The notes: a model not told the origin generated them from the sequence alone. Positions 19,124-42,477 are shown, numbered from the stretch's first letter. The stretch: 64,000 nucleotides of DNA from Myxococcota bacterium (GCA_041389445.1 JAWKRW010000002.1:501359-565358); one strand, 5' to 3'. Numbers and translations: made by a program.

Positions 19124-20977
19124 ATGTCCGCCGATCCTGGACCCGTTCCGTCCGCCCCCGCGGCGCGTCGCGCGCCCCGACCTGTCCGGATCTCCGGGCC
19201 GGCTCCTCGGCCGAGCTTCGTCTTCGCCCTCGCCCTCGCTGCGCTCGCGACGAGCTCCCTGTCCTACGCGGCCCAGGAGATCGCGTGCGCGACGCTCTCG
19301 CCCGTCGTCGGCCAGGCCTGTGCCGTCACGCCAGGGACCGACGGCCAGCTGCTGCTGCAGGGCGACGTTCTGGCCGACGGTTCGATCTACCGCGGCGGCG
19401 ACGTCCTGGTCGACGCGAGCGGCGAGATCGCCTGCGCCGGCTGCGGCTGCGTCGCGCCGGAGGCGACCCGCATCCGATGCCCGCAGACGGTCATCTCGCC
19501 GGGCCTGATCAACGGCTACGACCACATCACCTTCGACCACAACGCGCCCGCCGCCGACACCGGCGAGCGCTACGAGCAGCGACACGACTGGCGCCTCGGC
19601 GCCCGCGGTCATTCCTCGATCAGCGCCTCCAGCAACACCAACGCGAACCAGCTGCGCTGGAACGAGCTGAGGCAGCTGCTCTCGGGCACGACGTCGGCCT
19701 CGACGAGCGGCGGTGCCGCCGGCCTGATCCGGAACCTCGACAACGCGACGAACCAGGGCCTCGGCCTTCCCCAACACCGCCGCGACACCTTCCCCCTCGG
19801 CGACTCCTCGGGCCTCCAGCTCGCCTCGGGCTGTGCCTATCCGAACATCCGCTCGAGCGACTCGGTCGCGAGCGATCCGGCCTATCTGCCCGTCGTCGGC
19901 GAAGGCATCGACGCCGTCGCCCGCAACGAGTTCCTCTGCACGAGCAGCTTCGCCGACGGCGGCGAGGACCTCCTCCAATCGATGACCGCGATCGGCAAGG
20001 GTCTCGTCTTCGCCGCCGCCGAGCTCCACGCGATGCACTGGAACGGCGCCGGCCTCGTCTGGTCCCCGCGCTCGAACCTCCGCCTCTACGGCGACACCGC
20101 CCGCGTCACGGCGGCGGCGACCGAAGGCGTCGAGATCGCGCTCGGGACGGACTGGTCCGTCAGCGGATCGATGAACATGCTGCGCGAGCTCACGTGCGCC
20201 GATGCCTTCAATCGCGACCACCTCGACGCGTACTTCACCCAGGAGCAGATCTGGGCGATGGCGACGCGCAACGCCGCCTCGCTGACCGCCACCGACTCGA
20301 AGATCGGGACGATCGCCGCCGGGCGCGTCGCCGACCTCGCGGTCTTCGACGCCTCGGTCCGGAGCGACTACGACGCCATCCTGAACGCGCAGCCGCAGGA
20401 CGTGATCCTCGTCGTGCGCGGCGGGCGGATCCTCTTCGGCGAGGCCGACACGCTCGCGGACGTCCCGGACGTCGGCAGCTGCGACGCCCTCGACGTCTGC
20501 GGCAGCGATCGCTCGGTCTGCCTGCTCGACGACATCGGGATGACGCTGGCGCAGCTCGAGCTGGCCGTCAGCGCGAACTTCCCGTACCCGCTCTTCTTCT
20601 GCGGCACGCCGGTCGACGAGCCGACCTGCGTGCCGACGCGTTCGGCCTCGGTCGCTGGCTCGACGATCTACGACGGCGTCCCGACCGCGACCGACGCCGA
20701 CGGCGACGGAATTCCGGACGCGAGCGACAGCTGTCCGACGGTCTTCAATCCGATCCGCCCGATCGACGCCGGGGTCCAGGCGGACTTCGACGGCGACCTG
20801 CTCGGCGACGAATGCGATGCGACGCCGGTCCCGGAGCCCTCCGTCGCCTGCGCGCTCGCCGGCGGAATCGGTCTCGGGGCCGCCTGCGCCGGTCGGCGCC
20901 GCTCCGCCGGTCGACTCAACCGTCTTCGCCGCGCACGTCGATCGCGCGAAGGCGGCGCCGGTCGATGCGGAGGCTGA
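19124..20977 (+). CDS. Secreted amidohydrolase-superfamily protein with thrombospondin-type-3-like Ca-binding repeat and PEP-CTERM tail
   Basis: A signal peptide is present (FVFALALAALATSSLSYAAQE). The strings PGLINGYDHITFDH and LGTDWSVSGS suggest an amidohydrolase-like fold. DADGDGIPDASDSCPTVFNP...DFDGDLLGDECD is TSP3-like. The C-terminus is PVPEP followed by a G/A-rich TM segment and RRR. Confidence 0.8.
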   Translation: MSADPGPVPSAPAARRAPRPVRISGPAPRPSFVFALALAALATSSLSYAAQEIACATLSPVVGQACAVTPGTDGQLLLQGDVLADGSIYRGGDVLVDASGEIACAGCGCVAPEATRIRCPQTVISPGLINGYDHITFDHNAPAADTGERYEQRHDWRLGARGHSSISASSNTNANQLRWNELRQLLSGTTSASTSGGAAGLIRNLDNATNQGLGLPQHRRDTFPLGDSSGLQLASGCAYPNIRSSDSVASDPAYLPVVGEGIDAVARNEFLCTSSFADGGEDLLQSMTAIGKGLVFAAAELHAMHWNGAGLVWSPRSNLRLYGDTARVTAAATEGVEIALGTDWSVSGSMNMLRELTCADAFNRDHLDAYFTQEQIWAMATRNAASLTATDSKIGTIAAGRVADLAVFDASVRSDYDAILNAQPQDVILVVRGGRILFGEADTLADVPDVGSCDALDVCGSDRSVCLLDDIGMTLAQLELAVSANFPYPLFFCGTPVDEPTCVPTRSASVAGSTIYDGVPTATDADGDGIPDASDSCPTVFNPIRPIDAGVQADFDGDLLGDECDATPVPEPSVACALAGGIGLGAACAGRRRSAGRLNRLRRARRSREGGAGRCGG

Positions 20978-23228: not shown

Positions 23229-23519
23229 TCAATCGTGGGCGAGCGACTTCTCCGTGAAGAGATAGTCCTTGAGCTCCTTGGAGAAGGCGGGATCCCGCCT
23301 TCGGATCCATTCGAGCACCATCGCCGCGTGCTCCTTCTCCTCGTCGCGATTGTGCTCGAGGATCGCCTTCAGCTCCGGGTCGCCACAGGCGTCGGCGCGC
23401 TGCTGGTACCAGTCGACCGCCTCGAGCTCCTCGATCAGCGAGACGATCGCGCGATGCATGTCGAGCGTCTTCGGACTCAGCTTCTCGGCGGGCTCGTGCA
23501 GTCCTTCGTGAGCGGCCAT
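23229..23519 (-). CDS. Encapsulated-ferritin-like (EncFtn/Flp) protein, 96 aa, without a recognisable targeting peptide
   Basis: An AGGAGGTG Shine-Dalgarno is present. MHRAIVSLIEELEAVDWYQQRADACGDPELKAILEHNRDEEKEHAAMVLEWIRRRDP carries the E...ExxH di-iron ligand pattern of EncFtn. It is about 60 percent identical by eye to 46667..47155. It ends ...DYLFTEKSLAHD. Confidence 0.85.
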   Translation of the reverse strand: MAAHEGLHEPAEKLSPKTLDMHRAIVSLIEELEAVDWYQQRADACGDPELKAILEHNRDEEKEHAAMVLEWIRRRDPAFSKELKDYLFTEKSLAHD

Positions 23520-23606
23520 GCGGGTCACACCTCCTGAATGATCGAGCCGGCGGGGCCGATCCGAGCATGCCATAGTCGACGGCAGGCGACACGTCGGAGG
23601 ATCGCG

Positions 23607-24530
23607 ATGCAGGGGATTTCCATCCGCGAGCTGGACGCCCCCCTCGGCGCCGAGATCGACGGGCTCGATCCGACGACGCTGCGTGCGCTCGACGCGGAGG
23701 GGCTCGAGTCGATTCGCAGCGCGCTGCACCGTCATCGACTGCTCCTGATCCGGGGGACGCCCCGCGCCGACGCGGACCTCGTCCGCTTCGCCGAGCGCTT
23801 CGGTCGACTCGTGACGCTCTACGATCACGAGACGACCGTTCCCGGCTTTCCCGCGATCGTCCGCGTCAGCAACATCGAGACGGATGGGCGACCGATCGGG
23901 CTCGCCGGGTCGCAGCCGCTCCCCTGGCACCACGACCATTCCTACCTGCCCTGCCCCGCCCGCGAGAGCTTCCTCGAGGCGAGCCTGCTCCCGAACGATC
24001 CGCCGAGGACGGTGTTCGCCGACATGGCGATGGGGCTCGCGGCGCTGCCCGCGAAGCTGCGCGAGCGGATTCGAGGCCTGCGCGCCGTACACCACATCGA
24101 CGAGCGACCCGACGCCGTCGGCGACGCCCGCCGGCCGACCGGCACGACGCCCGACTACGCGGACGCGACGAACGTCCTCGCCCAGGACCGCATCGCGTCC
24201 CAGCGCGCGATCCATCCCGTCGTCGTGCGCCATCCGGAGAGCGGCGTCGAGGCGCTCTACGTCAGTCCGCTCGCGACCCACTCGATCGTCGGAATGCCCG
24301 CACCCGAGGCGCACGCGCTCCTCGACGAGCTCTTCGAGCGCGCCATCCGACCCGATCACATGTACGCCCACGCCTGGTCGCCCGGCGATCTCGTCGTCTG
24401 GGATACGGTCGCCACGCTCCACCGACGGGACGGCTTCGACCCGGCAGCGCGACGTCTCATGAAACAGATGTCGACCGCCTGCGCCGAGCCGCTCGCGTCG
24501 ACCGAGCCGACCCGCGCGCAACGAAGGTGA
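23607..24530 (+). CDS. TauD/TfdA-family Fe(II)/2-oxoglutarate dioxygenase (second paralog)
   Basis: A GGAGGA Shine-Dalgarno precedes the ATG at 23607. Diagnostic strings are PWHHDHSY (HxD), HPVVVRHPESG and WDTVATLHRR. Confidence 0.9.
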   Translation: MQGISIRELDAPLGAEIDGLDPTTLRALDAEGLESIRSALHRHRLLLIRGTPRADADLVRFAERFGRLVTLYDHETTVPGFPAIVRVSNIETDGRPIGLAGSQPLPWHHDHSYLPCPARESFLEASLLPNDPPRTVFADMAMGLAALPAKLRERIRGLRAVHHIDERPDAVGDARRPTGTTPDYADATNVLAQDRIASQRAIHPVVVRHPESGVEALYVSPLATHSIVGMPAPEAHALLDELFERAIRPDHMYAHAWSPGDLVVWDTVATLHRRDGFDPAARRLMKQMSTACAEPLASTEPTRAQRR

Positions 24531-26328
24531 CCACGACGGCGAGGCCGGAGACGAGGGCGAGGATGCCTGCGCGGGAGAGCGCCGGGACCGCCGGACTGAT
24601 CGGGGCGGTCACGCAGTTCGAGAAGGGCGACCCGCTCAGGGGCACCTCGAGCGTCCCCCCGACGAAGTCGAGGGCGACCACCCAGTCCGCCGTCGCCGTC
24701 AGCTGCGGTCGAGCGGGGACATGCGCGAGCACGTGCTGGAACGAGGCAGGACAGCCCTCGAGCTCGATCGCCTCCAGGAAATCCCGCCCCTCCCCCGCTC
24801 CGCTCGAATCACATGCGTCGTTCGCGAACAGCTCGACCCGCGTCCGCAGACACGAGAAGGGCGGAGCGACCGGAAGCGGCAGATCCAACGTACCCAGCAG
24901 CACGACGCCCGCGGTCGACGGAGCCGATTCGAGCACGAGCCACGGAAGCGGATCCGCCCCCCCGACCTCGGCGAGGATTCCGAGGCCCTGGTTGTCCCAG
25001 ATCCGATTCTGCTCGAGCGTCTCCCGCTGGCTCGCGACGCGCACGCCCGCGCCTTCGTTCGCCCAGACGAGGTTCCGGGCGACCTGATCGAATTGACCGA
25101 GCGCGAGATCGATGCCGACCGCGCTCTGCGCGATCGCGTTCGACTCGATCCGATTGTTGCGGCTCGCCGACTCCATCGACGCGTCGCCCACCCGGATCCC
25201 TGCCCCTTCGTTGCGCAAGCTCGAGGCCAGGAAGGGCAGCGGGTCGTCGCCGCCGCGGCTCAGGAACGCGAGCGCGCTCGTCCCGACCCCGATCAGGTTG
25301 CCGGTGACGAGCGTATGGGCGGACGCCTGCTGCGTGTCGGGATCCGAAGGCGTGCCCAGGAGCGCGATGCCGTCGCCCAGGGTTCCGCCGATGACGTTCG
25401 CCACGATCCGATTGCCGAGCTCGTGATGCGCCGTGCTCGGGTCGGGATCCGGAACGAACGGATCCGCGCTCCGCCCCACGACCACGATGCCGTTGCCCGT
25501 GATGGGATCGGTGCCCGAGATCCCGCGACGCCCCGTCCCGTCCGTCCCCACGAAGTTGTTGACGATCGCGTTCTGCCAGGTCCGGAACGTCGGGCTCGAC
25601 GGGTCGGCGGACCCGCCGAGCGCGATGGCGTAGAGCTGCGCGCCCGCGACGACGTTCCGGTCGACGGGCGAGGGGCTTCCGATCTCGTTGGCCGCCGCAT
25701 CGAGGACCAGGATGCCGTAGCCGAGCGAACCGACGCCGTCGGACGATCCGTCGGCTCCGACGCCGACGTAGTTGCCGACGAATCGGACGCCATCGCAGCG
25801 TTGATTCAGGAATGCGTAGTTGGCGAAGTCGTTGAAGATCAGCCCCCGGATGACGTGCGCCGACGTCTCCCCATCCGAACACAGGGTGGCGAGCCCGTAC
25901 GGCGTCGAGCCGTTTCCCCGGAGCTCGACCATCGGTTGCGCATTGCCGGGCGTCAGCAGGGGCGCCGAGTTGGGGACCGAGCCGGGCTGCGTCCAGCCAT
26001 CGATGATCATCCGCGACCGGATCACGGGAAGCGCCGACTCGCCGAGCTGGATGAGGCGCGGTCCGCTGCCGGGCATGTCGAAGCGGATCGTTCCCGGTGC
26101 ACACGCCCGGGCGTTGAGCTCCTCGATGGCGGCGCGCAGGGTGCAGACGGAGGTCGAGGTTTGGCACACGCCGTTGCCGGGAACGGCGTCCGCGAGATCG
26201 GCGGCCGAGTCGACGGTGACCGTCAGCGGCACGCACTGGGCGCGCGCCTCGTCGGCCTGGAGCGCAGCGAAGACCAGGGCTGCCAGGAGGATCGGATTCG
26301 AGCTCCGTCGGGTGGAAGAATCGATCAT
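24457..26328 (-). CDS. Secreted right-handed parallel beta-helix repeat protein (CSLREA-like N-terminal motif) with PEP-CTERM-variant anchor
   Basis: A signal peptide is present (ILLAALVFAALQADEARAQ). GNGVCQTSTSVCTLRAAIEELN resembles the CSLREA motif. Many short G-N-x-I/V-G repeats (NRIESNAI, NLVWANEGAG, NRIWDNQGLG) are typical of beta-helix/NosD-like folds. The tail is VPALSRAGILALVSGLAVVVTFVARGS...RRRR. Confidence 0.8.
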   Translation of the reverse strand: MIDSSTRRSSNPILLAALVFAALQADEARAQCVPLTVTVDSAADLADAVPGNGVCQTSTSVCTLRAAIEELNARACAPGTIRFDMPGSGPRLIQLGESALPVIRSRMIIDGWTQPGSVPNSAPLLTPGNAQPMVELRGNGSTPYGLATLCSDGETSAHVIRGLIFNDFANYAFLNQRCDGVRFVGNYVGVGADGSSDGVGSLGYGILVLDAAANEIGSPSPVDRNVVAGAQLYAIALGGSADPSSPTFRTWQNAIVNNFVGTDGTGRRGISGTDPITGNGIVVVGRSADPFVPDPDPSTAHHELGNRIVANVIGGTLGDGIALLGTPSDPDTQQASAHTLVTGNLIGVGTSALAFLSRGGDDPLPFLASSLRNEGAGIRVGDASMESASRNNRIESNAIAQSAVGIDLALGQFDQVARNLVWANEGAGVRVASQRETLEQNRIWDNQGLGILAEVGGADPLPWLVLESAPSTAGVVLLGTLDLPLPVAPPFSCLRTRVELFANDACDSSGAGEGRDFLEAIELEGCPASFQHVLAHVPARPQLTATADWVVALDFVGGTLEVPLSGSPFSNCVTAPISPAVPALSRAGILALVSGLAVVVTFVARGSARSTRAARRRRSTSVS

Positions 26329-26707
26329 GGGCGCTCCGATTCCGATGCTCGGCCGATCCGCCGATCGACACCGTTTCGAGTATGCACCAGGGGAATCCCA
26401 TTGCGTTCGCCTCATCGCGAGGATTCCGACGAAGGCCTCGGGGTCGCGAGACGGCCGGCGCCCTCCGAATCGCGGCCCAGTCCGTCGGAATCCGCCGGGG
26501 ACGCCCTTGCGTCCGGCTGGCCGCGCGGCTCCGACGTCGCGTGGAAGGCCGGGATCTTCTGGGGCGTTTGTGTGAACCCCTTCATGGAGGCGGGGCCGCC
26601 CGCGCCCGAGACTCCTCCCATGGCCGACGACCCGCTGCGCCCACCGCGATCGGAATGGGCGAGCGAATCACGATCGCATCGGCCCGATGGATGGGAGGAT
26701 CGAGCGC

Positions 26708-29152
26708 ATGAGACCCTGGACCCGATCGAAAGCCTCAGGAGCCGGTCGCGACGCGACGACGCACACGCTGCGACGGACCCTTCACACCCTGCTGACCGCG
26801 GCCTGCCTGCCGCTCGCGGCCCAGGCCCAGCTGCTCGCGCCCGGCCCCAAGCTCGAGCTGGCGGCCGCGCCTTCCCCGACCGCGATCGCGCCCATCCAGG
26901 CGCCCGGGCAGGCGGTCGCCCAGCTCGACGCGCTCGATCGCGTGGCGCGCGATCGCCAGCTCGACCAGCTCGCGGCCGCTCCGACCAGCACGGGCCCGAC
27001 GCTCTTCATGTCGATCGCCGCCTCGAGCGCCCGCGCGGCCTGGCAGACGGCGGAGGCGGACGTCGATCGCGCGCGCGCGCTCGCCTGGGCCGGCATGCAG
27101 CCCGGCTACAGCCTCGCGACCTTGATCCACGCGCCCCTCGCGCTGGCGTTCCTCGACCTGCAGATCGAGCTGCGTCGCAACGTCGGCCCGACGCTCACGA
27201 CGGACGTCGAGGGGCTCGACGCGGAGCCGGCCTGCGCCGGGGACGTCGTCGGCGATCGGCTGATCGCCGCCTACGGCGAGGCGATCGTCCAGCCCCTCGG
27301 CGCCGATGCCGAGGCGACCGGCGCAGCGCTCGAGTCGCTCGCCGTCCAGGTCGCCTGCCTCGGCAGCGCGCAGCTGGCCCGGCTCGATCGCGGGCTCGCC
27401 AAGGGCTTCGTCGACGTCGCGGCGCGCATGGCGGACCACGGTCTCGGCCAGCTCGAGCCGAGCTTCGCCCAGCTCGTCGCGCCGCTCGAGGTCCTGCTGC
27501 TCGACGCGCGCAAGCATCGCGGCAAGCGCGCGAGCGCATGGCGCTGGTTCGATCTGCATGCCGAGCCGCTCCTCGCCGCGACCGCGAACGCGGGCTGGGC
27601 GACCGAGGAGCTCCTCGTCTGGGATCGCCGCCATGGCATGCTGCTCGGCTTCCCGGCCTGCAGCGGATCGACGTCCGCGGACTGCGTCGACCTCGAGATC
27701 CTGCTCGAATCCGTCGCCGACCCGCGCGCCCTCGGCCTCGGCGGATGCGGTCTCGCGGCCATGATCTCCCAGGGCGTCCAGGCGATCGACGGGGATCCGC
27801 GTTATGTCTGTCCGATGCAGGCCTGCTCGGCGCCGGGCGGTCCGGGCGGGGTCGGAGCGACGAGCCCGTTCGGGAATGCCTCGCTCGCGGGCGGCGCCAG
27901 CTTGGCGCTCGGCGGGCTCGCGACGTCGCCGCACCTGAGCGGCAGTGCCGGCACGGGCGGCCTCCCGGGCGACCTCGCGGCGATCTGGGGCAACGCCCTC
28001 GACGGCCAGGACGTCGCGGCCATGGGCGCGATCTGCGGCGCGGGCGGCGATTGGCAGGGTCCGCGCTTCGACGTGACCAGCTGCTTCGAGTCGCTTCCGA
28101 GCCCCGAGGCACAGAATCCCTTCGACCAGCACATGGCGTGCATGCAGGAGGTCCTCGACCCCGAACGGCCCGCACTCGGAGAGACCCTGCGCGGCGTGCC
28201 GAACGGGCCGGAATGCGGTCTCGCGGAGGGGGGCGCAGCAGGCGCGGATCCCGACAAGAAGGCCGAGGAGCCCAAGCCGAAGGAGCCGGAGGTCGCGAAG
28301 CCGGTCGACGGCGCCACGCCGAAGATCACGCCGACGCCCTACGCCCGTCCCCTCGCCGAAGGCAACAGCTACGAGATCACGTCCGGCCAGGGCTCGATTC
28401 GCGCCGTCGAGATCGTCGACGCCCAGACGGGCGAGCTCGTCCGCGTCGAGGTCTCGGTCGAAGGCATGTCGCCCGAGCAGGCGATCGCCGCCGTCGAGCG
28501 CGAGATCTACGCGAAGGACGGGACGATGCAGGACCTCCAGTTCAGCGATACGGCAGAGCTGATCGACATCGCGCTCTGGGACGCGGCCGACAAGCAGAGC
28601 GCCACGGATCCGAAGTGCGCGAAGGGCTGCTCGGGCCGCACCCAGACGCTGACGCCCCCCGCGGCCGGGAACCAGGGCTGCTTCGATCCGCTCTCCTGCA
28701 GCGACGACGGCTGCTCCGGCATCGGCGAGCAGATCTCGGCGGCGACCGACTGTGAAGAAGCGCTGCTCGACGATCTCGCCGAGGCGGCGGGCCTCGGCCG
28801 TCCGGGACCCGACGAAGTCGATCCGACGCAGCCCTCGGACCCGGTCTCGAACTGGGGCCCCGACAGCGACCACGGCGTCGACGGGAGCGGCGTCGGGCTC
28901 TGCCTGAGCGCGGGCTACCTGCCGCGACCGCCGGCCCACTGCGCCTTCATCCTCTGCGCAGGGGGTGGGATGGCGGTGCCGCTCGGCGACGGCTGTGGCT
29001 GCCCGTCGTCGCCGCGGATGACGGTCGAGGACGTCTGCATCGAGGCGATCTGCATGGACGGTACGGTCCCCGGTCCGAACTGCGAGTGCGGCGGCTTCGA
29101 CGGGGAGCTGCCCGACTGGCCGATCGGCCCCGATCCGGTGACGCAGCGCTAG
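26708..29152 (+). CDS. Large secreted hypothetical protein (814 aa), Cys-rich C-terminal third
   Basis: A GGGAGGA Shine-Dalgarno lies 8 nt before the ATG at 26708. A signal peptide is present (LHTLLTAACLPLAAQAQ). The frame is GC3-rich and continuous. I recognise no family. Confidence 0.7.
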   Translation: MRPWTRSKASGAGRDATTHTLRRTLHTLLTAACLPLAAQAQLLAPGPKLELAAAPSPTAIAPIQAPGQAVAQLDALDRVARDRQLDQLAAAPTSTGPTLFMSIAASSARAAWQTAEADVDRARALAWAGMQPGYSLATLIHAPLALAFLDLQIELRRNVGPTLTTDVEGLDAEPACAGDVVGDRLIAAYGEAIVQPLGADAEATGAALESLAVQVACLGSAQLARLDRGLAKGFVDVAARMADHGLGQLEPSFAQLVAPLEVLLLDARKHRGKRASAWRWFDLHAEPLLAATANAGWATEELLVWDRRHGMLLGFPACSGSTSADCVDLEILLESVADPRALGLGGCGLAAMISQGVQAIDGDPRYVCPMQACSAPGGPGGVGATSPFGNASLAGGASLALGGLATSPHLSGSAGTGGLPGDLAAIWGNALDGQDVAAMGAICGAGGDWQGPRFDVTSCFESLPSPEAQNPFDQHMACMQEVLDPERPALGETLRGVPNGPECGLAEGGAAGADPDKKAEEPKPKEPEVAKPVDGATPKITPTPYARPLAEGNSYEITSGQGSIRAVEIVDAQTGELVRVEVSVEGMSPEQAIAAVEREIYAKDGTMQDLQFSDTAELIDIALWDAADKQSATDPKCAKGCSGRTQTLTPPAAGNQGCFDPLSCSDDGCSGIGEQISAATDCEEALLDDLAEAAGLGRPGPDEVDPTQPSDPVSNWGPDSDHGVDGSGVGLCLSAGYLPRPPAHCAFILCAGGGMAVPLGDGCGCPSSPRMTVEDVCIEAICMDGTVPGPNCECGGFDGELPDWPIGPDPVTQR

Positions 29153-29185
29153 TCGGATCGGAAGGCGCGGGCTCGCGCACCGAAG

Positions 29186-29217
29186 GACGGCTCGTCGGGA
29201 TGACCCGGCGAGCCGTC
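29186..29217 (+). terminator. Strong GC hairpin between convergent genes (candidate terminator, no U-tract)
   Basis: The structure is gacggctcgtcggg-atga-cccggcgagccgtc: a 14-bp stem (one G-U pair on the plus transcript) with a 4-nt loop. It starts 34 nt after the stop at 29152. Confidence 0.35.
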
Positions 29218-29254
29218 CGCGCGTCGTGGATCGCGTCCGATGGGGCGTCGCGCT

Positions 29255-31537
29255 TCAGACCGGATTCCCGATCGAGCGCCATTCGCCCCGTCGGCGTCGC
29301 GCGAGACCCGCCGCCGCCAGCACCGCGGCGCCGCAGGCGGCCATGCCCTGCGGCTCCGGCAGGAAGACATAGGCCGCCCCCTGCTCGGGGTTGATCCCGG
29401 TCGTCGCGCCCGGCGCTCCGACCAGCACGACCGAGCCGTTGCTGCTCATCCCGATCGCCGACGTGCCCGGAAGCGTCGAGTAGCCGAACTGATCGCCGGG
29501 CGCCGCATCCGGCGCGCCGAAGCGCGCGCCCTCGGTCGCGTCGTCCCATCCCGTCGGCGGCCGCAGGAAGGCGTAGACGGAGCCGGGCGAGCCGAAGTCC
29601 GAGGCGATGATCCGCGTCCCGTCGGCGCTGATGCGCGGGCGCGCGATGCTGGCTCCGTCGGAGGTCGACAGCTCGGCGTAGTCGCTGCTGTCCACCCAGA
29701 GCGGGAGCGAGACGCAGCCGCGCGGCGTGCAGAGCTGGATCCGCGGCTGGGGAAAGACGAGGACGCGTCCGCTGGCGCCGACCGCCACGGTCGTGCCGCT
29801 CGCCGTCGTATCGACCGAGTTGCCGACGAAGCCGAGCCCGCTCCCCGGCGCAGCGGTGAGCTCCGCGCTCTGCGTCGCGCTCGTCCAGCTGCCGCTCTTC
29901 AGGAACAGGTCGACGACGCCGGCGTAGCCGTTCGCCTGGGGCGCGGTGGCGACGATCGTGCCGTCGTCCGCGCTGATCGCGACGGCCATGCCGAGCAGGT
30001 CGCGATGGCCACCACTCGCGCGCGTGAGCTTGACGGGGCTCGCGCTGTCGTTCCAGCCCCCGGCGGGTCGCACGAAGACGTAGGCCGCACCGCGGGACTC
30101 GCCGCCCACGAGCGCGCCGGTATAGCCGAGCACGATCGTGCTGCCGTCGCCGTTGACCGCGATGCTGCTCGTCGCGTCGGTCTGGCAATCCGTCGCGTTG
30201 CCGGAGAAGCCGCAGGGCGTCTCCGTGAGCGTCGTCAGCGAGAGGATCGCCGCGTGCTGGCCGGTCGAGGTCCAGCCGGAGGTCGGCTTGACGTAGACGT
30301 AGACGATGCCCGCGCTGGAGTCGACGCTGTCGAGCGTGTCGGTCAGCACCGCGATCGTGTTGCCGTCGCCGCTGATCGCGACCGAGGTCCCGAAGCCGTG
30401 CTGGTTCAGGCCCGGCGTGCTCGTCAGCTTGGCCACGGAGTCGAGACAGCCGATGGTGATGCAGCCGTTCCAGCCGCCGAAGGGGCCGCTCGGCTTGCGG
30501 AAGACGTAGACGGCGCCGGAGTCCAGGTTCGAGCCGAAGCCGTAGGGCGCCGCGACGGCGACGGTATTGCCGTCGCTGCTGATCGCCACGGATTGACCGA
30601 AGCGATCCCCAGGGCTGCCGGCCTGGCAGAGCTGGCCGATCGTGCAGACCGACTGGTTGTTGTTCAGGCGCGTCGCGCCGATCACGGGATCGATCGTCAG
30701 GGGATAGACCGCGCCCGCATCGTCGACCGAGAGGCGCAGCCCGCCCTCGGCGAGGACGAGCGCGGCGGGCAGCTCGCGCCCCGTGGCGTCGAAGGCGAGC
30801 AGACCCCCATAGCGGAGCGCGAGACGGCCCTCGTGCGCCAGCGCGAGGCCCCGACCGCCCGGCTCCACCGAGGCATCGAAGTTGCCCGCGAGCGCGAAGA
30901 CGAGGCTCAGGCGCCCGTCGTCCGGGCGCCCGGGCGAATGCGTGAGCGTGAACCCCTGCTCGAGCCCCAGCGGTCCGTTCGCATACCACTCCGTGACGGG
31001 TCCGCGCCGAAATTCGACGCGATTCGCGCCGGCCGTGGGGCTCGCGACGGAGACCGGCTCGAGCCGGTCTCCGCGTCCCATCCGAGCGAGCGCGAGCTGC
31101 AGGCGGGCGCCACCCTGGCGGAGCTCGAGTCCGGCGCGCGTGAAGTCGGCCGTGAAGCCGTTCGCTTCGTTCCGGAGACGGACGCGCTCCGGACTCTCCG
31201 TCGCATGGTAGTCGGGTCGTTCCGCTCCGAGCGTTCCGGAGAGCGCGGCCTGCAGGACCGGCGGCAGGGCTTCGAGGCCCGAGCGGGCGGGCGGGCCGGC
31301 GGCCTCGGCGGCGGGAAGGGCAACGGGTCGGGGGACACGGCGGGCGTCGGCCGCACCGGTCTTCGACGGGATGGCCCAGCCCGGATTCGCCAGCAGGACG
31401 AGCAGTGCGGTCCAGGCCGAGCCCAGGCGGCGGCGCCTTCGCGCGGGAGGCGTGCCTCGACCCGGCGCGCTGCATGGATCGCATGAAGGGAGGCGAGCCG
31501 GATCGATCGTCGAGGCAGAATGCGAGAGGCGTCGCAT
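29255..31537 (-). CDS. FG-GAP-like repeat protein with PEP-CTERM sorting tail (760 aa)
   Basis: ATG at 31537 with a GGAGAC Shine-Dalgarno. A signal region is present (AWTALLVLLANPGWA). Repeats include FGQSVAISSDGNTVAVAAP, FGTSVAISGDGNTIAV, SIAVNGDGSTIVLG, MAVAISADDGTIVATAP and AAYVFV. The C-terminus is LPEPQGMAACGAAVLAAAGLARRRR. Confidence 0.8.
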   Translation of the reverse strand: MRRLSHSASTIDPARLPSCDPCSAPGRGTPPARRRRRLGSAWTALLVLLANPGWAIPSKTGAADARRVPRPVALPAAEAAGPPARSGLEALPPVLQAALSGTLGAERPDYHATESPERVRLRNEANGFTADFTRAGLELRQGGARLQLALARMGRGDRLEPVSVASPTAGANRVEFRRGPVTEWYANGPLGLEQGFTLTHSPGRPDDGRLSLVFALAGNFDASVEPGGRGLALAHEGRLALRYGGLLAFDATGRELPAALVLAEGGLRLSVDDAGAVYPLTIDPVIGATRLNNNQSVCTIGQLCQAGSPGDRFGQSVAISSDGNTVAVAAPYGFGSNLDSGAVYVFRKPSGPFGGWNGCITIGCLDSVAKLTSTPGLNQHGFGTSVAISGDGNTIAVLTDTLDSVDSSAGIVYVYVKPTSGWTSTGQHAAILSLTTLTETPCGFSGNATDCQTDATSSIAVNGDGSTIVLGYTGALVGGESRGAAYVFVRPAGGWNDSASPVKLTRASGGHRDLLGMAVAISADDGTIVATAPQANGYAGVVDLFLKSGSWTSATQSAELTAAPGSGLGFVGNSVDTTASGTTVAVGASGRVLVFPQPRIQLCTPRGCVSLPLWVDSSDYAELSTSDGASIARPRISADGTRIIASDFGSPGSVYAFLRPPTGWDDATEGARFGAPDAAPGDQFGYSTLPGTSAIGMSSNGSVVLVGAPGATTGINPEQGAAYVFLPEPQGMAACGAAVLAAAGLARRRRGEWRSIGNPV

Positions 31538-31837
31538 GGCGGTGGTCTCCACGGTGCATCGGCGACCTCCGGCGACGCCGCGCCGTCTGCGCGGAGGCCT
31601 GCCGGAGGTCGGATGTCCATGGAGTCCGGGGAGCGGCTCGAATCCGTCCAGCACGCTCGAGGAAGGCTCGAATCAGGCGCCGCGCCGGAAGGCGGGCCCG
31701 AGCACGCCCGCGCCCGCCCCGCCCGCGCATCGACCCGGACGAACGCAGCGGTCGCGATCTCCGGCACGAGCGTCGCGTAGACCGCGTCCGAAGGGAGCCA
31801 AGCGAGCGCGACCGGTCCAGCGCCCCCGAACGCCCCT

Positions 31838-32598
31838 TCACGCGCGAAGCCGCCGGCGAGGAGCGCCGGCGAGGAGCACGATCGCGATCCGATCACGGCC
31901 GAGGTAGGCCTCGTCGAAGCCCGGCGGACCGGCGTCGAGCCGCGGGATCGCCGCCCGCGCGCCGGGCGGCGCCCCGGTGCGCGCGGCGTCGAAGACGGGG
32001 GCGAGCGGCGAGATGCCGGGCAGGATCCCGAACGTCTCGGCGCCGTCCGCGAGACCCGCGATCAGCGGCGTCTCGACGGTCGCATCCGTGATGAACGGGT
32101 TGCCGCGCGCGAGGCCGAGCAGGCTCTCGCTCCCCGCGCCCGAGATCCACGCGCCGGCGAGGGCCGTATTCCAACCGACGACATGACGTCCGTCGCCCTC
32201 CCCGCTGCTGCCCGCGCCGCCATAGCCAGCCATCACGAGCTCGCCGTCTTCGACCACCGAGGCCAGCAGGACCAGTGTCCCGCCGCGGCCCGGTCCGCCG
32301 GCGCCCCCGACCGCGCCCGGTTGACCGGACGCGCCGCTGGCGCCGTGGCCGCCCCGACCCTCCGTACCGCCGACGCCTGCGTCCGCCCCATCGCCGCCGG
32401 GCCCGCCGAAGCCGCCGAGACCACCCGCCGCGCACGCGATCTTGGCCGGGCCGCCGCCGATCCGCCGAGGAGGAGCGCCGCGGCGAGGGCGGAGGGCGCT
32501 GCGAACGCGCGCGTGACGCGCCTGCGACCCGCGAAGAGGCCGGTCGAGCGTCGGCCGACCGAGGGGCGCTGGTCCTCGAACGACCGTCGCTGCGCCAT
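31838..32598 (-). pseudogene. Gly-rich secreted protein gene interrupted by a 1-nt frameshift (pseudogene, programmed shift or assembly error)
   Basis: The ATG at 32598 lies 2 nt after the TAG of the upstream Cys-repeat gene and encodes a signal peptide (AFAAPSALAAALLLGGSAAA). That frame then turns to junk. The adjacent frame continues from about 32450 as GPAKIACAAGGLGGFGGPGGDGADAGVGGTEGRGGHGASG...VVEDGELVMAGYGGAGSSGEGDG... to the stop at 31838. The shift falls in the run tcggcggcggccc. Confidence 0.5.
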
Positions 32599-32600
32599 GA

Positions 32601-35078
32601 CTAACGACCTTCTTCCCTTCTCCTTCGTCCCGCGATCCAGGCCATGGCCAGCGTGCCGAGCATCGTCATCGTCGGTCCGTCCGGCTCCGGCACGATGAGG
32701 CCGTCGAGCCGGCTCGTGCTGCCGAGGCCGCTCGCGCCGTCCCGCTCCGCCGTGATCTCGACCGAGAGCGACTGCGCGTTCATCGGAGCGACGCCCCAGG
32801 CCTCGAAGCCGCGCCAGACGTCATCCGGGGGCGAGCTCGCCACGTCGTCCGTCCGCGCGATGGCGCCGTCACAGGCGAGGCCGCCATGCCAGTGGAGGCG
32901 GAGCGCACCCGGAAGCGTGCCCGAGGTCTTCGCCTGCGCGAGCACGGCGTAGAGCTCGCCCGGCAGTACGCTCGTGCACGGCGAGCCGAGCCGGCCGACC
33001 GTCTCGCCCGACAGCGCCGTCGGGCTTTCGACCTGGGCCGAGCCCGAGGCGAGCCGGCCCATGGCGTCATCGGCCGTCCAGGTACAGAGCGCCGGATCGC
33101 TGCACGACCAGCCCTCGAGATCGAACGCCGCGCCGGCATTCGCCACCGCCGCAGCCGGGCGCGACGGCGTCGCCGGCAGCGCCGCCGCAGGCGGATCGAC
33201 GACGACCGTGTCGAGCACGGACTCACAGAGATAGGAGCTCGCCGAGAAGGGCAGGATGTCCGGCCCGACGCCGAGGGCGAAGCTGTCCTCGGTCCCGATC
33301 AGGTTCGGCAGCGGGAGGACGCCGTCGCGCGGGAAGACCTGTGCCGTCGCGAAGTTGAGGACGCTGACGATCTGGATCTCCTGCGCGTTCATGAAGTCCG
33401 AGCCGTCGACGGCATCGAAGTCCTCGTAGAAGCCGATCGAGACGAAGGTCTCGATGGAGACGTCGGCGTTGAGACCGCCGCAGAGCGTCGTGAAGCAGCC
33501 GTACTCGCCCGTCTGGCCGTAGGCGACGCCGAACGACTGGGACTCGCCGACGAGGCCGGCGATCTCGTTGCCGATCGCATAGGTCATCGTCAGGCCGGTG
33601 TCGCGCGCGGCCGCCTGCAGATCCGCGCTGTAGAGCGAGCGGCAGACCGCCTCGCTGATCGCGCCCTGATTCGCGTTCAGGTTGCAGGTCAGCGGCGCTG
33701 CGCAGCCCTCGATCAGACAGGGATCGCAGGAGGCGCCGGCGATGCACGGGTTGAAGGCCGAGCAGCCCTCACCCGGCTTGCGCAGCTCGCGGCAGCGATT
33801 CGGGAAGCCCGCCTGGCAGTAGAGACCCGCGCCACACGGCGTTCCGACATCGCAGGTCTGCCCGAGCTGCGCCGGCGCATTCGAGCAGCGGAGGGACAGC
33901 GTGCACTGGAGCCCGTTCGAGCACGGCACGCCCGGACCGCAGGCCTCGTCGACGCCGGCGGCATCGACGCAGCGGAAGCCGGCGAAGGGATCGCAGAAGA
34001 GCCCCGGCTCGCACTGGTAGACCGGTCCGCAGGCCTGGCCGAGCGTCTGCGCCGGCTTGCAGACGCCGCTCGACTGGATCCCGAGCGGCAGGTTGCCGCA
34101 CTGGCCGGAGTTCGGCGCGGCATGCTCGTTCAGCCCCGGCTGACAGGCACCGAAGGGCGCCTCGAGCAGACAGCACGCGCGCTGATCGACTCCGCCGCAG
34201 GCCGTGACCACCTCGCAGACGCCGCTCGACTGGATGCCGGGCGGCAGGTTGCCGCACTGACCCGAGTTCGCCTGCGGCACCTCGACGAGCCCTGCCTCAC
34301 ACGCGCCGAAGCCCGCCTCGCCGAGACAGCAGGCGCGCTCGCCCGCGCCCCCGCACGATGTCACGACCTGACATACCCCGCTCGACTGGATCCCCGGCAG
34401 CGAGTTGCCGCACTGCCCCGAGTTCGGCTGCGGCACCTCGGCCAGGCCGGCCTGACACGCCCCGAACCCCGCCTCGCCGAGACAACACGCCCGCTGTCCC
34501 TCGCCGCCGCACGGCGTCACGACCTCGCACACGCCGCTCGACTGGATGCCCCACGCGAAGTTGCCGCACTGCCCCGAGTTGGCCTGCGGCACCTCCTGCA
34601 GCCCCGCCCGACACGCCCCGAACCCCGCCTCGCCGAGACAGCAGGCACGCTGTCCTTCGCCGCCGCAGGGCGCGACCGCGCGACAGATGCCGCTCGACTG
34701 GATGCCGAGCGAGGAGTTCGTGCAGTAGCCGGAGTTCGCCTGCGGCTGCTCGACCAGACCCGGCTGACAGGTCGCGCCCTCGCCCACGCAGCACGCGCGC
34801 TGGTTGACGCCGCCGCAGGGCGTCGCCGCGACGCAGATCGAGCTCGCCTGGATGCCGAGCGGATTGAAGCCCGAGCAGAGCCCGGCGTTGGCATGGGGCA
34901 CCTCGACGACGCCCGGGAAGCAGCCCCCGTTCGTCGGGGGCTCGAGCAGGCAGCACGCGCGCTGACCCGCGCTGCCGCAGGCGGCGGCGGAGGCCTCGCC
35001 CGCCGCGAAGGTCGTCGCGATCAGAACGAGAGCGAGCACGAGGAGGAGCGGAACGGGCCGGGCGACGGGACGCAGCAT
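32601..35078 (-). CDS. Cysteine-rich tandem-repeat secreted protein with PEP-CTERM tail (825 aa)
   Basis: ATG at 35078 with a signal peptide (PLLLVLALVLIATTFAAGEASA). Six repeats of about 52 aa follow, each with 6 Cys. Further CxC-rich modules and a roughly 350-aa C-terminal region come next. The protein ends IVPEPDGPTMTMLGTLAMAWIAGRRRR. The 307 aa upstream in the track ORF are junk. Confidence 0.85.
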   Translation of the reverse strand: MLRPVARPVPLLLVLALVLIATTFAAGEASAAACGSAGQRACCLLEPPTNGGCFPGVVEVPHANAGLCSGFNPLGIQASSICVAATPCGGVNQRACCVGEGATCQPGLVEQPQANSGYCTNSSLGIQSSGICRAVAPCGGEGQRACCLGEAGFGACRAGLQEVPQANSGQCGNFAWGIQSSGVCEVVTPCGGEGQRACCLGEAGFGACQAGLAEVPQPNSGQCGNSLPGIQSSGVCQVVTSCGGAGERACCLGEAGFGACEAGLVEVPQANSGQCGNLPPGIQSSGVCEVVTACGGVDQRACCLLEAPFGACQPGLNEHAAPNSGQCGNLPLGIQSSGVCKPAQTLGQACGPVYQCEPGLFCDPFAGFRCVDAAGVDEACGPGVPCSNGLQCTLSLRCSNAPAQLGQTCDVGTPCGAGLYCQAGFPNRCRELRKPGEGCSAFNPCIAGASCDPCLIEGCAAPLTCNLNANQGAISEAVCRSLYSADLQAAARDTGLTMTYAIGNEIAGLVGESQSFGVAYGQTGEYGCFTTLCGGLNADVSIETFVSIGFYEDFDAVDGSDFMNAQEIQIVSVLNFATAQVFPRDGVLPLPNLIGTEDSFALGVGPDILPFSASSYLCESVLDTVVVDPPAAALPATPSRPAAAVANAGAAFDLEGWSCSDPALCTWTADDAMGRLASGSAQVESPTALSGETVGRLGSPCTSVLPGELYAVLAQAKTSGTLPGALRLHWHGGLACDGAIARTDDVASSPPDDVWRGFEAWGVAPMNAQSLSVEITAERDGASGLGSTSRLDGLIVPEPDGPTMTMLGTLAMAWIAGRRRREEGR
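34059..34979 (-). repeat. Coding tandem repeat: 6 copies of a 150-162-bp unit (aa 34-340 of the Cys-repeat protein)
   Basis: Repeat starts are at residues C34, C88, C138, C190, C242 and C294. The consensus is CGGxGQRACCLGEAGFGACxAGLxEVPQANSGQCGNxxxGIQSSGVCxVVT. The three central copies (34200-34667) are visibly near-identical at the DNA level. Confidence 0.85.
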
Positions 35079-35305: not shown

Positions 35306-36040
35306 TCACGGCCCAGAGTCGCCCCCCGCGAACCCCGCGGCGGGGACCCGCCGCCCGGTCTTGCGCAGGATCCGGACCCGGACCTGCTGGTCGAAGGCGT
35401 ACTTCCCGTCGACGCGCTCGGCGAGCCGCTCGAAGGCCTCGACGAAGCGATCGTGCTGGTCCGCCATCCGCGCCGCGCGCTTCGGGTCGATGCCGACGAT
35501 GCGCTTCGCGAAGCCCTCGGCGGAGTCGAGCAGCATCGGGCTCGAATAACACGTCTCGTGGACTTGCTCGAAACCGACGGAGGGCGCGCGCTCGAGCGCG
35601 GCCTGGGCCAGGGCGCGGACCTCGGTCTCGTCGTCGATCAGGCTGACGACCTCGTGTCCCGCCCCTGCCGAGATCGGCTCGGCGACGTAGAGCAGGCCGC
35701 CGGGGCGCAATACGCGATGGGCCTCGCGCAGGGCGTCGAGCATCGCCTCGCGGGGGACGTGGTGGAGCGAGAACGACATCACGGCCGCATCGACGCTCGC
35801 GTCGGGCAGCGGCAGATCCTGACCGACGCCGTCGAGGTAGGCCTCGGCGTGCTCCGGATCCGCCTCCCGCGCGAGCCGCATCATGACCTCGCCGCACTCG
35901 ACGCCGACGGCATCCGCCCCGCGACTGCGCAGCCAGCGGACCAGCTCCCCGGAGCCGCAGCCGATGTCGACGACCCGGCGGCCCGTCGGTTCGATCCAAC
36001 GATCGAGCATCTCCTGCTGGGTCGAGCGTTCGAGCTGCAT
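35306..36040 (-). CDS. Class I SAM-dependent methyltransferase
   Basis: A GGAGGAGAGG Shine-Dalgarno precedes the ATG at 36040. VVDIGCGSGELV is motif I, and LRPGGLLYVAEP follows. Confidence 0.85.
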   Translation of the reverse strand: MQLERSTQQEMLDRWIEPTGRRVVDIGCGSGELVRWLRSRGADAVGVECGEVMMRLAREADPEHAEAYLDGVGQDLPLPDASVDAAVMSFSLHHVPREAMLDALREAHRVLRPGGLLYVAEPISAGAGHEVVSLIDDETEVRALAQAALERAPSVGFEQVHETCYSSPMLLDSAEGFAKRIVGIDPKRAARMADQHDRFVEAFERLAERVDGKYAFDQQVRVRILRKTGRRVPAAGFAGGDSGP

Positions 36041-36123: not shown

Positions 36124-37473
36124 TCAGCCCGCGGCTCGAGCCGCCGCGAGGTCGGACGCGATCGTCCGTCCCGCGCGCAGGGAATGGAAGACCGCGACCA
36201 GCGCGCCGACCGACGTGACCAGCAACGAATAGCGAACGGCCAGGATCCCGAAGCGCTCCGCCAGCACGTCGTTGAGCAGGCCGACGACGAGCGGCGCGAT
36301 CCCCAGCCCGATCAGGTTCATCGTGAAGAGCAGCAGCGCGGCGGCCTGCGCCCGCAGGCGCGGCGGCGCCAGGCTCTGTACGACGGCGAAGGACGGGCCG
36401 GTAAAGAAGAGCACGACGACCATCGCCGGGGCGTAGCCCAGGAGCGCGGCCATCGGCGTCGGCGCGAAGAGGAAGACGCAGAGCAGCGGAAGCGCGAGGA
36501 GTCCACCCAGAGCGGGGATCCAGACCAGCACGCGCGGATCGCGATCGGCGCCGCGATCGGCCAGCACCCCGCCCAGGAACGTGCCCAGCCCGCCGCCGAT
36601 CCCCTGGATCAGCCCCATCCAGAGGCCCGTCTCGCGCAGCGACAGCCCGTGGACGCGAATGAGGAAGCTCGAGCCCCAGACGGTGAACCCGTAGGCCGCG
36701 AAGACGTAGAAGGCGCTCGCGAGACTGACATGGACGAAGGTCCGGCGAGCGAGCAGGAACGAGACGACCTCCCGGAAGCGCGGCTCAGGCGCAGCAGCGC
36801 GCTCGGCCGCGGGTGCGGCGCGATCGGCATGAACGGGCTCCGTCGCGCCCCGCGGCGGCTCGTCGAGGGTGAAGCGGGCGAGCAGGGCCGCCGCGAGGCC
36901 GGGGAGACCGACGACCAGGAAGGCCGTGCGCCAGCCCAGCGTCTCGCCGATCCAGCCGCCGGCGATGAAGCCCAGCATGACGCCGACGTTGCCGCCGACG
37001 TTGAAGATGCCGAGGGCGGTCGCGCGCCGGTGGAGCGGGAATCCGTCGGCGATCAGGGAGTGGGCGGAGGGCGCGAGGGCGGCTTCGCCGATGCCCACGC
37101 CGAAGCGCGCGGCGGCGAGCTGCGCGAAGTTGCGCGCGAGGCCGCAGCACGCGGTCATGGCGCTCCAGACGACGACGCCCCAGACGATGACGCGCCGGCG
37201 GCTGCCGCGGTCCGCGACGCGCGCGATCGGAATGCCCGCCGTCGTGTAGAAGAGCGCGAAGGCGAGACCCGACAGGAAACCCATCGCCGTGTCGGAGGCA
37301 CCGAGCTCGCGCTTGATCGGCTCGATCAGGATCGCGAGGAGCTGGCGGTCGACGTAGTTGACGACGAAGAGCAGGGTCAACACGGCCAGCGACAGAACAG
37401 CGCGGCGACTCGTCGCGGGATCCGATCGATCGACGACGTCGGCCAGCGCCCTCGCGCTCGTGCTCATCGGCAT
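36124..37473 (-). CDS. MFS transporter
   Basis: There are about 12 hydrophobic segments. An MFS signature is present (GIPIARVADRGSRRRV, D-R-x-G-R-R). The ATG at 37473 overlaps the upstream HIT gene end by 10 nt. Confidence 0.9.
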   Translation of the reverse strand: MPMSTSARALADVVDRSDPATSRRAVLSLAVLTLLFVVNYVDRQLLAILIEPIKRELGASDTAMGFLSGLAFALFYTTAGIPIARVADRGSRRRVIVWGVVVWSAMTACCGLARNFAQLAAARFGVGIGEAALAPSAHSLIADGFPLHRRATALGIFNVGGNVGVMLGFIAGGWIGETLGWRTAFLVVGLPGLAAALLARFTLDEPPRGATEPVHADRAAPAAERAAAPEPRFREVVSFLLARRTFVHVSLASAFYVFAAYGFTVWGSSFLIRVHGLSLRETGLWMGLIQGIGGGLGTFLGGVLADRGADRDPRVLVWIPALGGLLALPLLCVFLFAPTPMAALLGYAPAMVVVLFFTGPSFAVVQSLAPPRLRAQAAALLLFTMNLIGLGIAPLVVGLLNDVLAERFGILAVRYSLLVTSVGALVAVFHSLRAGRTIASDLAAARAAG

Positions 37474-41766: not shown

Positions 41767-42477
41767 ATGCGCCGGCTGGGCTCGTTGCTCTTCGCCGTCG
41801 CGATGGCGGGCGGCTCCATCGCCTCCGACCCCTCCGACGCCACCGCGCAGGCCGTCGTCGGCGACGGGGACTTTTCGACCTGGACCGAGGTGTTCTCCTT
41901 TTCGAGCGGTGTCTGGTCGCGCCTCGCGACGGGCGGACACCCGGATGCCCACCTCGCGCTGACGGGGACCAACGGGTTGAGCTCCGTCGTGCTCCGACAG
42001 GGCACGGCGGGCTGGGATCCCGCGGCCCAGGGACCGCTCGCGACGATCCGATTCGCGGCTGACGTGCAGGGAACGTCCGGGGGGCTCGTCTCGGGACAGC
42101 CGGCCTTCGCATTCGCGCTGCTCCAGGGGAGCGAGACCTACCTCGCGCCCACGAGCTTCGACGTCGGCGACTGGACGCGGATCGAGACGCTCGCACTCAC
42201 GCCGACCGACTTCGTCGACACGCTGAACCCCGGCCGGCATCCGGACTTCTCGTCCTCCGGTGCGCCGATGCAGCTCGGCGTGGCGACGGCGAGCAATCTC
42301 TCGGCGGGATTCGACTTCCGCGTCGACAACTTCGAAGCCACGCTGGCCGCGGCGCCGCCGACGGTCCCCGTGTCGGCGCCCATCGCGCGGCTGCTCCTGA
42401 CCTTCGGCCTCACGTTCGTCGGCCTCCTCGCCTCCCGCCCTCCGCGCTCCTCGCCGGCGGGACCGGCGTGCCGCTGA
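41767..42477 (+). CDS. Secreted hypothetical protein with PEP-CTERM-variant C-terminal anchor
   Basis: A signal peptide is present (MRRLGSLLFAVAMAGGSIAS). The tail is TVPVSAPIARLLLTFGLTFVGLLASR. Its stop overlaps the next gene's ATG (TGATG). Confidence 0.65.
   Translation: MRRLGSLLFAVAMAGGSIASDPSDATAQAVVGDGDFSTWTEVFSFSSGVWSRLATGGHPDAHLALTGTNGLSSVVLRQGTAGWDPAAQGPLATIRFAADVQGTSGGLVSGQPAFAFALLQGSETYLAPTSFDVGDWTRIETLALTPTDFVDTLNPGRHPDFSSSGAPMQLGVATASNLSAGFDFRVDNFEATLAAAPPTVPVSAPIARLLLTFGLTFVGLLASRPPRSSPAGPACR

Follow-up and report, generated by a model that had tools for sequence, protein, structure and literature searches.

When several adjacent genes all seem to encode exported proteins, do they form a functional unit or do they merely share a stretch of the chromosome? 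This question is raised by five consecutive genes (here G1 to G5) that make up a small island within a 64,000-nucleotide stretch of DNA from a Myxococcota bacterium (GCA_041389445.1, JAWKRW010000002.1:501359-565358). The entire stretch is referred to below as the window. Exact protein look-up identified the five genes as NCBI locus tags R3F35_08570-08590 (MEZ4331796.1 to MEZ4331800.1) of a Myxococcota bacterium metagenome-assembled genome (MAG). The original prediction, made from the DNA sequence alone, had interpreted them as a cell-surface or matrix module. Its gene coordinates agree with both the exact look-ups and our own frame analysis, and the products do look exported and surface-anchored. 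The module itself did not hold, as none of 15 homologous loci contains a second member. We consider that the region probably brings together accessory genes for envelope or surface proteins, each transcribed independently, in an arrangement that is lineage-specific and not conserved. On this reading, G1-G5 are neither an operon nor a co-inherited system.

Genomic context of the homologs

We compared 15 loci (14 of them distinct, 186 kb altogether), each surrounding a homolog of G2, G3 or G5. Homologs of G5 (52-66% identity) are found at loci L001-L004, L007 and L013-L015, which represent seven distinct contexts, because L003 and L004 are near-duplicate contigs. Homologs of G2 (35-75% identity) define loci L005, L006 and L008, and those of G3 (32-39%) define L009-L012, three of which were obtained from a metagenome scan (32-38%) and one of which is a distant Solirubrobacterales locus. 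All the island proteins (G4 in a reconstructed form) and the products of the flanking TauD, methyltransferase and major facilitator superfamily (MFS) genes were searched against all 15 loci with tblastn (E≤1e-3). In the reverse search, the neighbours found at L002 and L005-L008 were compared with the window. Each of the 15 loci has exactly one island homolog; neither a further island gene nor any of the flank genes was detected there by tblastn at this threshold. Neither co-occurrence nor adjacency of the island genes was observed at these loci of other genomes. Homologs scattered without a conserved neighbourhood were the outcome set beforehand as refuting a module, and the module claim therefore fails.

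The individual loci illustrate how different the contexts are. At L008, where the G2 homolog is 75% identical, different genes lie on both sides. At L007 the G5 ortholog (66% identity) is preceded by a divergent gene for a NarL/GerE response regulator and followed by two unrelated genes. The G5 relatives at L001, L013, L014 and L015 reside among housekeeping genes; the neighbours of G5 relatives include genes for pyrimidine biosynthesis together with RecG, for acyl-CoA metabolism, for arginine catabolism and for a penicillin-binding protein. Distribution and context are also independent between the family of G2, with its 264 representatives, and that of G5, which counts against a common module.

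A NarL/GerE-type regulator gene lies directly upstream of the G5 ortholog, in divergent orientation, at both L002 (9128-9751) and L007 (399-1058), two loci from different metagenomes. The L002 regulator is accompanied by a hybrid histidine kinase, and a gene for an Rce1-like protease is located 4.4 kb away. In the window, the counterpart of this regulator position is occupied by the methyltransferase gene. As originally noted, that gene lies upstream of G5 on the same strand, and its identity is supported by a strong Methyltransf_11 match. We considered a functional link between the methyltransferase and the surface proteins and rejected it on two grounds: none of the eight loci with a G5 homolog gave a tblastn match to the methyltransferase, and the window encodes at least three such enzymes of class I. 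The methyltransferase gene is probably part of one unit with the MFS gene.

Organization and origin of the region

Genes in the window were called by frame analysis of the GC content at third codon positions (GC3) in combination with exact protein look-ups. Raw lists of open reading frames (ORFs) were swamped by spurious frames, because the GC content of the window is 69-73% throughout. The NCBI models of G1, G2 and G3 are identical to those proposed originally; for G5, NCBI places the start at TTG 35087, 9 nucleotides (nt) upstream, which results in 828 amino acids (aa). The genes and the segments of G5 are listed in Table 1.

Table 1. Genes of the region and its upstream flank, and segments of the G5 protein (AF2, AlphaFold2; CBM, carbohydrate-binding module; pLDDT, predicted local distance difference test; SAM, S-adenosylmethionine)
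Feature	Position	Strand	Remarks
G1, exported right-handed beta-helix protein, 623 aa	24457-26328	-	MEZ4331796.1, 'NosD domain-containing protein'
G2, exported protein, 814 aa	26708-29152	+	MEZ4331797.1
G3, FG-GAP beta-propeller protein with PEP-type tail, 760 aa	29255-31537	-	MEZ4331798.1, 'FG-GAP repeat protein'
G4, small ORF region, uncertain status	31838-32598	-	MEZ4331799.1 (NCBI: 31838-32233, 131 aa)
G5, exported Cys-repeat protein with PEP-type tail, 825 aa	32601-35078	-	MEZ4331800.1
G5 tail	32604-32687	-	VPEP + TMTMLGTLAMAWIAG + RRRREEGR; full end ...VPEPDGPTMTMLGTLAMAWIAGRRRRE
G5 aa 652-797, beta jelly roll, CBM-like	32688-33125	-	AF2 and Foldseek
G5 aa 480-625, all-beta domain, eight long antiparallel strands	33204-33641	-	AF2, pLDDT 77-90
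G5 aa 346-470, four short (~30 aa) Cys-rich units	33669-34043	-	pLDDT 74-92
G5 aa 34-345, six tandem 52-54-aa units, 6 Cys each	34044-34979	-	C-x7-CC-x8/9-C-x14-C-x12-C
Class-I SAM methyltransferase, 227 nt upstream of G5	35306-36040	-	Methyltransf_11, E=1e-23
MFS transporter gene	36124-37383	-	upstream of the methyltransferase gene

The five genes are arranged on strands -,+,-,-,-, with G2 divergent from G1 and convergent with G3. Given three direction changes and G2 on the plus strand, at least four transcription units or promoters are required. Intergenic gaps range from 100 to 380 nt, with the exception of the 2 nt between G5 and G4. At its 3' end G1 shares 74 nt with the convergent TauD gene, and both flanks of the block consist of ordinary metabolic genes. 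What one would expect of an operon, namely a co-directional arrangement with short gaps or shared regulatory signals, was not found. There is no shared upstream motif among the island genes, and no sigma-54 site upstream of any of them; in the whole window such sites fall below shuffled expectation, and sigma-70-like sites and terminators do not exceed it. Classical PEP-CTERM genes are regulated by a sigma-54/PrsR-type regulon; we rejected such a regulon here, as the island genes have no such sites upstream. Among ~50 scanned genes of the window we found no exosortase, no polysaccharide-synthesis cluster and no dedicated regulator, and domain searches agree with the original observation that the island itself has no gene for an enzyme, transporter or regulator. 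The strand changes, the lack of a common upstream motif or a sigma-54 promoter, and the lack of an exosortase, glycosyltransferase cluster or regulator nearby all argue against a single co-regulated module.

The N-termini of all five products (the four large proteins and the small ORF), as read from the sequence, display basic residues, a hydrophobic stretch and small residues, and look like Sec signal peptides. The initial description of five secreted repeat proteins is upheld as far as these predicted signals are concerned; G2, encoded on the plus strand, turned out to be non-repetitive. Each of the five products forms a singleton at 90% identity, as expected of fast-evolving accessory surface proteins.

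Might the five genes instead have arrived together, as one mobile surface-protein block inserted between the TauD and the methyltransferase/MFS genes? Such a horizontally acquired island would fit both the way the block breaks into a run of metabolic genes and the singleton status of all its products. However, GC content is flat (0.70-0.73) across the island borders and, like GC3, is the same as in the flanks. The region contains no tRNA and no bordering direct or inverted repeats, neither an integrase nor a transposase was found among the ~50 scanned genes, and the samples and contexts that supplied the best homologs vary from gene to gene. We rejected a mobile island for want of tRNA, integrase, repeats and compositional shift, and consider horizontal acquisition of the block highly improbable.

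Domain architectures and sorting tails

The domain content of G1 and G3 largely conforms to what had been proposed. The beta-helix assignment of G1 is backed by matches to Beta_helix (6.6e-7) and NosD (8.2e-7), in agreement with the NCBI name. Its likeness to CSLREA-type proteins is less secure: residues 38-72, with the motif CTLRAAIEE, match CSLREA_Nterm (TIGR04214) at 23.2 bits, under the cut-off of 25. G3 matches FG-GAP_2 (PF14312) strongly, in three stretches (2.2e-19; 69.8 bits against a gathering cut-off of 23), again in agreement with the NCBI name, and its DNA is periodic at 207-219 nt. The choice of the G3 start is uncertain, with candidates at 31537 (ATG), 31552 (GTG) and 31654 (GTG). 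Secreted binding proteins of bacteria are commonly built on integrin-alpha-like FG-GAP propellers or NosD/CSLREA beta-helices. Points of difference from these known proteins are the sub-cut-off CSLREA match of G1 and the fact that neither G1 nor G3 has a sequence relative in the PDB.

Three of the proteins were expected to carry PEP-CTERM or variant anchors. Tails of this kind are indeed present at the C-termini of G1, G3 and G5, but none of the three reaches a model cut-off. The G3 tail (nt 29258-29362) consists of LPEP, the hydrophobic 17-mer MAACGAAVLAAAGLA and RRRR (full end ...LPEPQGMAACGAAVLAAAGLARRRRG). The Pro-Glu-Pro motif typical of TIGR02595/PF07589 begins 33 residues before the end in G3 (FLPEPQG) and 29 residues before the end in G5 (IVPEPDG), and in both proteins it is directly followed by a helix and a basic cluster. 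The G1 C-terminus (nt 24460-24588; ...AGILALVSGLAVVVTFVARGSARSTRAARRRR) has a membrane helix and an Arg cluster; it has no PEP motif and reaches no sorting model. With TIGR02595 (cut-off 16 bits), G5 scores 9.6 and G3 has no match, and with PF07589 neither protein has a match at E≤0.01. Only one of the 20 G5 family members matches TIGR02595, and weakly (E=0.044). With the MYXO-CTERM model (TIGR03901; cut-off 20 bits), G5 scores 18.2 but lacks the invariant Cys that the signature motif has before the helix, and G3 and G1 do not match at all.

Haft et al. 2006 (PMC1569441) describe PEP-CTERM proteins as present in large numbers per genome, as lineage-specific and as having few recognised domains. 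G3 and G5 resemble the proteins of this PEP-CTERM/exosortase (EpsH, XrtA) system in the tripartite end (P-E-P, a helix without spacer, an Arg cluster), in the predicted signal peptides, in having few recognised domains and in being lineage-specific. Moreover, a 330-aa protein encoded in the same window (56106-57098, minus strand), 21 kb from G1-G5, has a PEP-CTERM tail that passes TIGR02595 (19.1 bits against 16). The differences from the system are the sub-cut-off scores of G3 and G5, the Cys-richness of G5, the G1 tail without PEP, and the lack of an exosortase or exopolysaccharide locus within the window. The 330-aa protein also has a repetitive N-terminus (MASGMRTRASGMRKRKSGMRKMESEMRKMASG...), and a gene for a rhomboid-family intramembrane protease (58276-59046, plus strand) is located 1.2 kb from it.

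The other relevant system, MYXO-CTERM/myxosortase (10.1101/2023.06.07.544157; PMC11980579), comes from the same phylum as the host and features the same tripartite tail design. The near-cut-off score of the G5 tail, the Cys-type tails of the four closest G5 orthologs, which are similar to MYXO-CTERM and related Cys signals, and a window gene (19124-20977, plus strand) ending in Cys, a helix and RRR are further points of likeness. In contrast to MYXO-CTERM, the G5 motif is devoid of Cys, and G3 has its Cys within the helix and thus behind the PEP motif. None of these tails reaches a model cut-off, and the window has no Rce1-like protease. Gene 19124-20977 encodes an amidohydrolase (Amidohydro_1) with thrombospondin type-3 repeats fused to it. 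Its product weakly matches the MtsC cell-cohesion MYXO-CTERM protein, has a tail that is under every model cut-off, and seems to be a surface-displayed enzyme that uses a MYXO-CTERM-like signal.

Tail type is not constant within the G5 family. The tail of the [VIL]PEP type is present in the window G5 and in 13 of the 19 aligned relatives (14/20 members), and IPAP is found in one more relative. In the four orthologs closest to the window G5 (64-66% identity; P0002-P0005, loci L003, L004 and L007), the end reads GGGCGL[IV]G[LIA]EP...RRR, a Cys-type tail that no NCBIfam model matches. It is reminiscent of JDVT-CTERM, in which Cys is followed by a D/E-P motif inside the helix (10.1101/2023.06.07.544157; PMC11980579). 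Since both PEP-type and Cys-type tails occur among G5 orthologs, the sorting signal has been swapped within one orthologous family, which illustrates the free exchange of such signals. The G1 tail has a counterpart of its own: a 236-aa exported protein unrelated to G1 (41767-42477, plus strand) bears a similar non-PEP tail. The two have in common P[AT]VP..S, a hydrophobic helix and an R/S-rich end, and their sole model match is a faint one to midcut-by-XrtH (E=0.003, 17 bits against 45). Judging by this shared pattern, the tail may represent an undescribed sorting signal, the third of this genome.

G5 lives up to its description as a Cys-repeat protein, with 62 Cys residues (7.5%). The 52-aa unit corresponds to a 156-nt tandem repeat in 5-6 copies (5.2 by period analysis, 77% matches). 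It recurs in secreted membrane dipeptidases (PF01244), neutral ceramidases and AbfB-domain proteins of many phyla, and no Pfam model covers this six-Cys repeat. The conserved core of the G5 family is the C-terminal half, and the Cys residues of the four short units (aa 346-470) are invariant in 20 family members. The AF2 model of G5 has a mean pLDDT of 70, reaching 74-94 over residues 340-625 and 655-800, and places helices at both termini (residues 9-28 and 801-824). A Foldseek search of the PDB found that a G5 domain (~155 aligned columns) is similar to CBM16, CBM4-2, CBM22, the hyaluronan-binding CBM70 and the lectin-like C-terminal domains of phage tailspikes (target TM score 0.52-0.71, E down to 3e-5, probability 1.0). 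As the output gives no query ranges, the matches were placed on aa 652-797 by length and strand pattern. The domain thus superposes on members of the CBM4/9/16/22 jelly-roll class, yet shares only 10-16% sequence identity with them and has no Pfam CBM match. On the strength of the structural model, the jelly roll probably binds glycan.

G2 had been regarded as an orphan, which turned out to be incorrect. A word-indexed search retrieved 6 relatives, whereas an exhaustive profile search at E≤1e-3 yielded 264 cluster representatives, of which 116 have E≤1e-30; proteins of 750-1000 aa predominate. In G2 a low-complexity linker joins a helical N-terminal domain (~aa 70-510) to a C-terminal domain rich in Cys. 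The protein has neither internal repeats nor a sorting tail, and matches nothing in Pfam or NCBIfam. Its AF2 model, based on 7 sequences, has a pLDDT of 40, too low for a fold search. The family has 16 invariant Cys residues. Among 46 sampled members, six (P0187, P0197, P0198, P0201, P0222 and P0246) begin with a membrane domain of the MauE type (PF07291), and one has a glutaredoxin domain. These features hint at an extracytoplasmic, disulfide- or redox-linked and disulfide-dependent role. PDB sequences searched with the G2 and G5 family profiles gave nothing meaningful. The sole match, of the G2 family to a SnoaL-like protein (49 residues, E=5e-4), was rejected as a functional lead. Very likely, G2 and the G5 52-aa repeat represent genuinely unnamed and fairly widespread extracytoplasmic families, and both are of modest value for protein-family curation.

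Taken together, these features suggest how the proteins might work. Each product would be exported through Sec by its N-terminal signal peptide. G3 and G5 would first be tethered in the inner membrane by the tail composed of PEP, helix and Arg cluster, and G1 would probably be tethered likewise by its related tail without PEP. By analogy with PEP-CTERM/EpsH (PMC1569441), an exosortase-type enzyme whose gene lies outside the window would then cut off the tail. We propose an exosortase system for this genome because the window encodes the model-passing PEP-CTERM protein and the two other tail-bearing proteins described above. The mature proteins would be displayed at the surface of the cell or within the matrix, where the exposed domains could serve as generic binding scaffolds: the beta-helix of G1, the integrin-like FG-GAP propeller of G3, and the stalk and domains of G5. 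The disulfide-rich six-repeat stalk of G5, presumably rigid, would hold out the beta domain and the CBM-like jelly roll. The fold classes of the beta-helix, the propeller and the CBM-like domain are suggestive of glycan or matrix binding. G2 would be a soluble or periplasmic member of its separate unnamed Cys-rich family. The genes would act individually, and their adjacency would be due either to chance or to the accretion of dispensable surface-protein genes at a permissive site flanked by metabolic genes.

Several observations weigh against this picture of independent accessory genes. At L007 two unrelated PEP-CTERM genes follow the G5 ortholog, and at L005 another lies 2.3 kb from the G2 homolog; a non-random, perhaps regulatory, clustering of this tail-bearing gene class is weakly possible. 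In permutations within the window, which was picked after the fact, a run of at least five exported-protein genes has P = 0.02-0.05, and the presence of four large (>600 aa) proteins within five genes has P = 0.009. The closest homologs are on contigs of 4-11 kb, so that only immediate neighbours were compared, and the comparison set is without any close-relative genome. The G3 and G5 tails fall under the PEP-CTERM cut-off and no exosortase gene was seen, and therefore the sorting step is one that we infer. Finally, the Cys content of G5 (7.5%) contrasts with the ~0.4% typical of PEP-CTERM proteins (PMC1569441).

How unusual is such a run? Export signals are present in 13-16 of the ~54 window genes. 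For 5,000-8,000 genes and a secreted fraction of 15-30%, 0.3-14 runs of five are expected per genome, and the adjacency is only marginally beyond chance. In Myxococcota-like genomes it is commonplace for exported, tail-anchored proteins to occur in clusters. The within-window run statistics and the unrelated PEP-CTERM genes at L007 and L005 can also be cited, along with the adjacency of the genes, the export signals of all the products and the three anchor tails, in favour of one co-functional, co-regulated surface or matrix module (an adhesin complex, a biofilm matrix or an S-layer-like structure). Set against the strand changes, the absence of a second member at all 15 loci and the lack of common regulatory signals, they leave such a module quite unlikely. 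There is also a slim chance that the region is a young lineage-specific surface or matrix locus, drawn from undescribed families (G2 and the 52-aa repeat) and too recent for synteny to be seen elsewhere. A gathering of independently transcribed accessory genes therefore remains our preferred reading. The cluster as originally claimed matters little, since genes of this kind are already known and the conservation test failed.

The G5/G4 junction and the surroundings of the island

If any two of the genes form a real unit, these would be G5 and G4. The G5 stop codon (32603-32601) is separated from ATG 32598 by exactly the 2 nt reported originally (cgt TAG tc ATG). This ATG opens a frame with a signal-like peptide, and a Gly-rich body follows in another frame, ending at 31838. 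The original prediction explained this layout by a frameshift, and indeed a single continuous G4 frame requires a 1-nt insertion between ~32470 and ~32300. The frameshift is plausible from the sequence: the second frame is open and the N-terminus at ATG 32598 is signal-like. It is unsupported by homologs, and NCBI annotates only the 131-aa ORF.

One way to interpret these observations is that only G5 and G4 make up a translationally coupled operon, with an intact Gly-rich G4 partner and a frameshift that is a MAG assembly error. G4 would then comprise a signal peptide, a Gly-rich region and a short hydrophobic, Arg-rich end. The TAG-tc-ATG spacing and the signal-peptide-like N-terminus are in line with this possibility. 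So is the Gly-rich frame, which is open for 830 nt (from 32668), though startless for its first 410 nt: its first ATG, GTG or TTG codon is GTG 32257. The C-terminal part of this frame is strongly coding (GC3 0.83-1.0). However, GC3 fails to separate the frames in the Gly-rich stretch, and the ORF annotated by NCBI is unshifted. The reconstructed G4 has no homolog among the matches listed, a weak point, since in this search Gly-rich words saturate the candidates. Furthermore, no G4-like gene follows the G5 orthologs at L001, L002, L007, L013, L014 or L015. On balance, a G5/G4 operon seems unlikely, and G4 is probably either a decaying gene or the product of an assembly indel.

Some features of the window outside the island deserve mention. 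An encapsulin operon (46667-47961, plus strand) consists of a gene for EncFtn-like cargo (PF22277, 3.8e-35) that overlaps the Linocin_M18 shell gene (4.8e-80). A stand-alone EncFtn-like gene (23229-23519, minus strand; 3.1e-44), missed by GC3 gene calling, is located 23 kb from this operon, between the GFA and TauD genes. The TauD gene next to G1 (23538-24530, plus strand) has a paralog of the same TauD/TfdA dioxygenase family at 15504-16385 (plus strand). Two luciferase-like monooxygenases (13554-14432 and 14516-15442) and several amidohydrolases are also encoded to the left of the island, which suggests a catabolic neighbourhood on that side.

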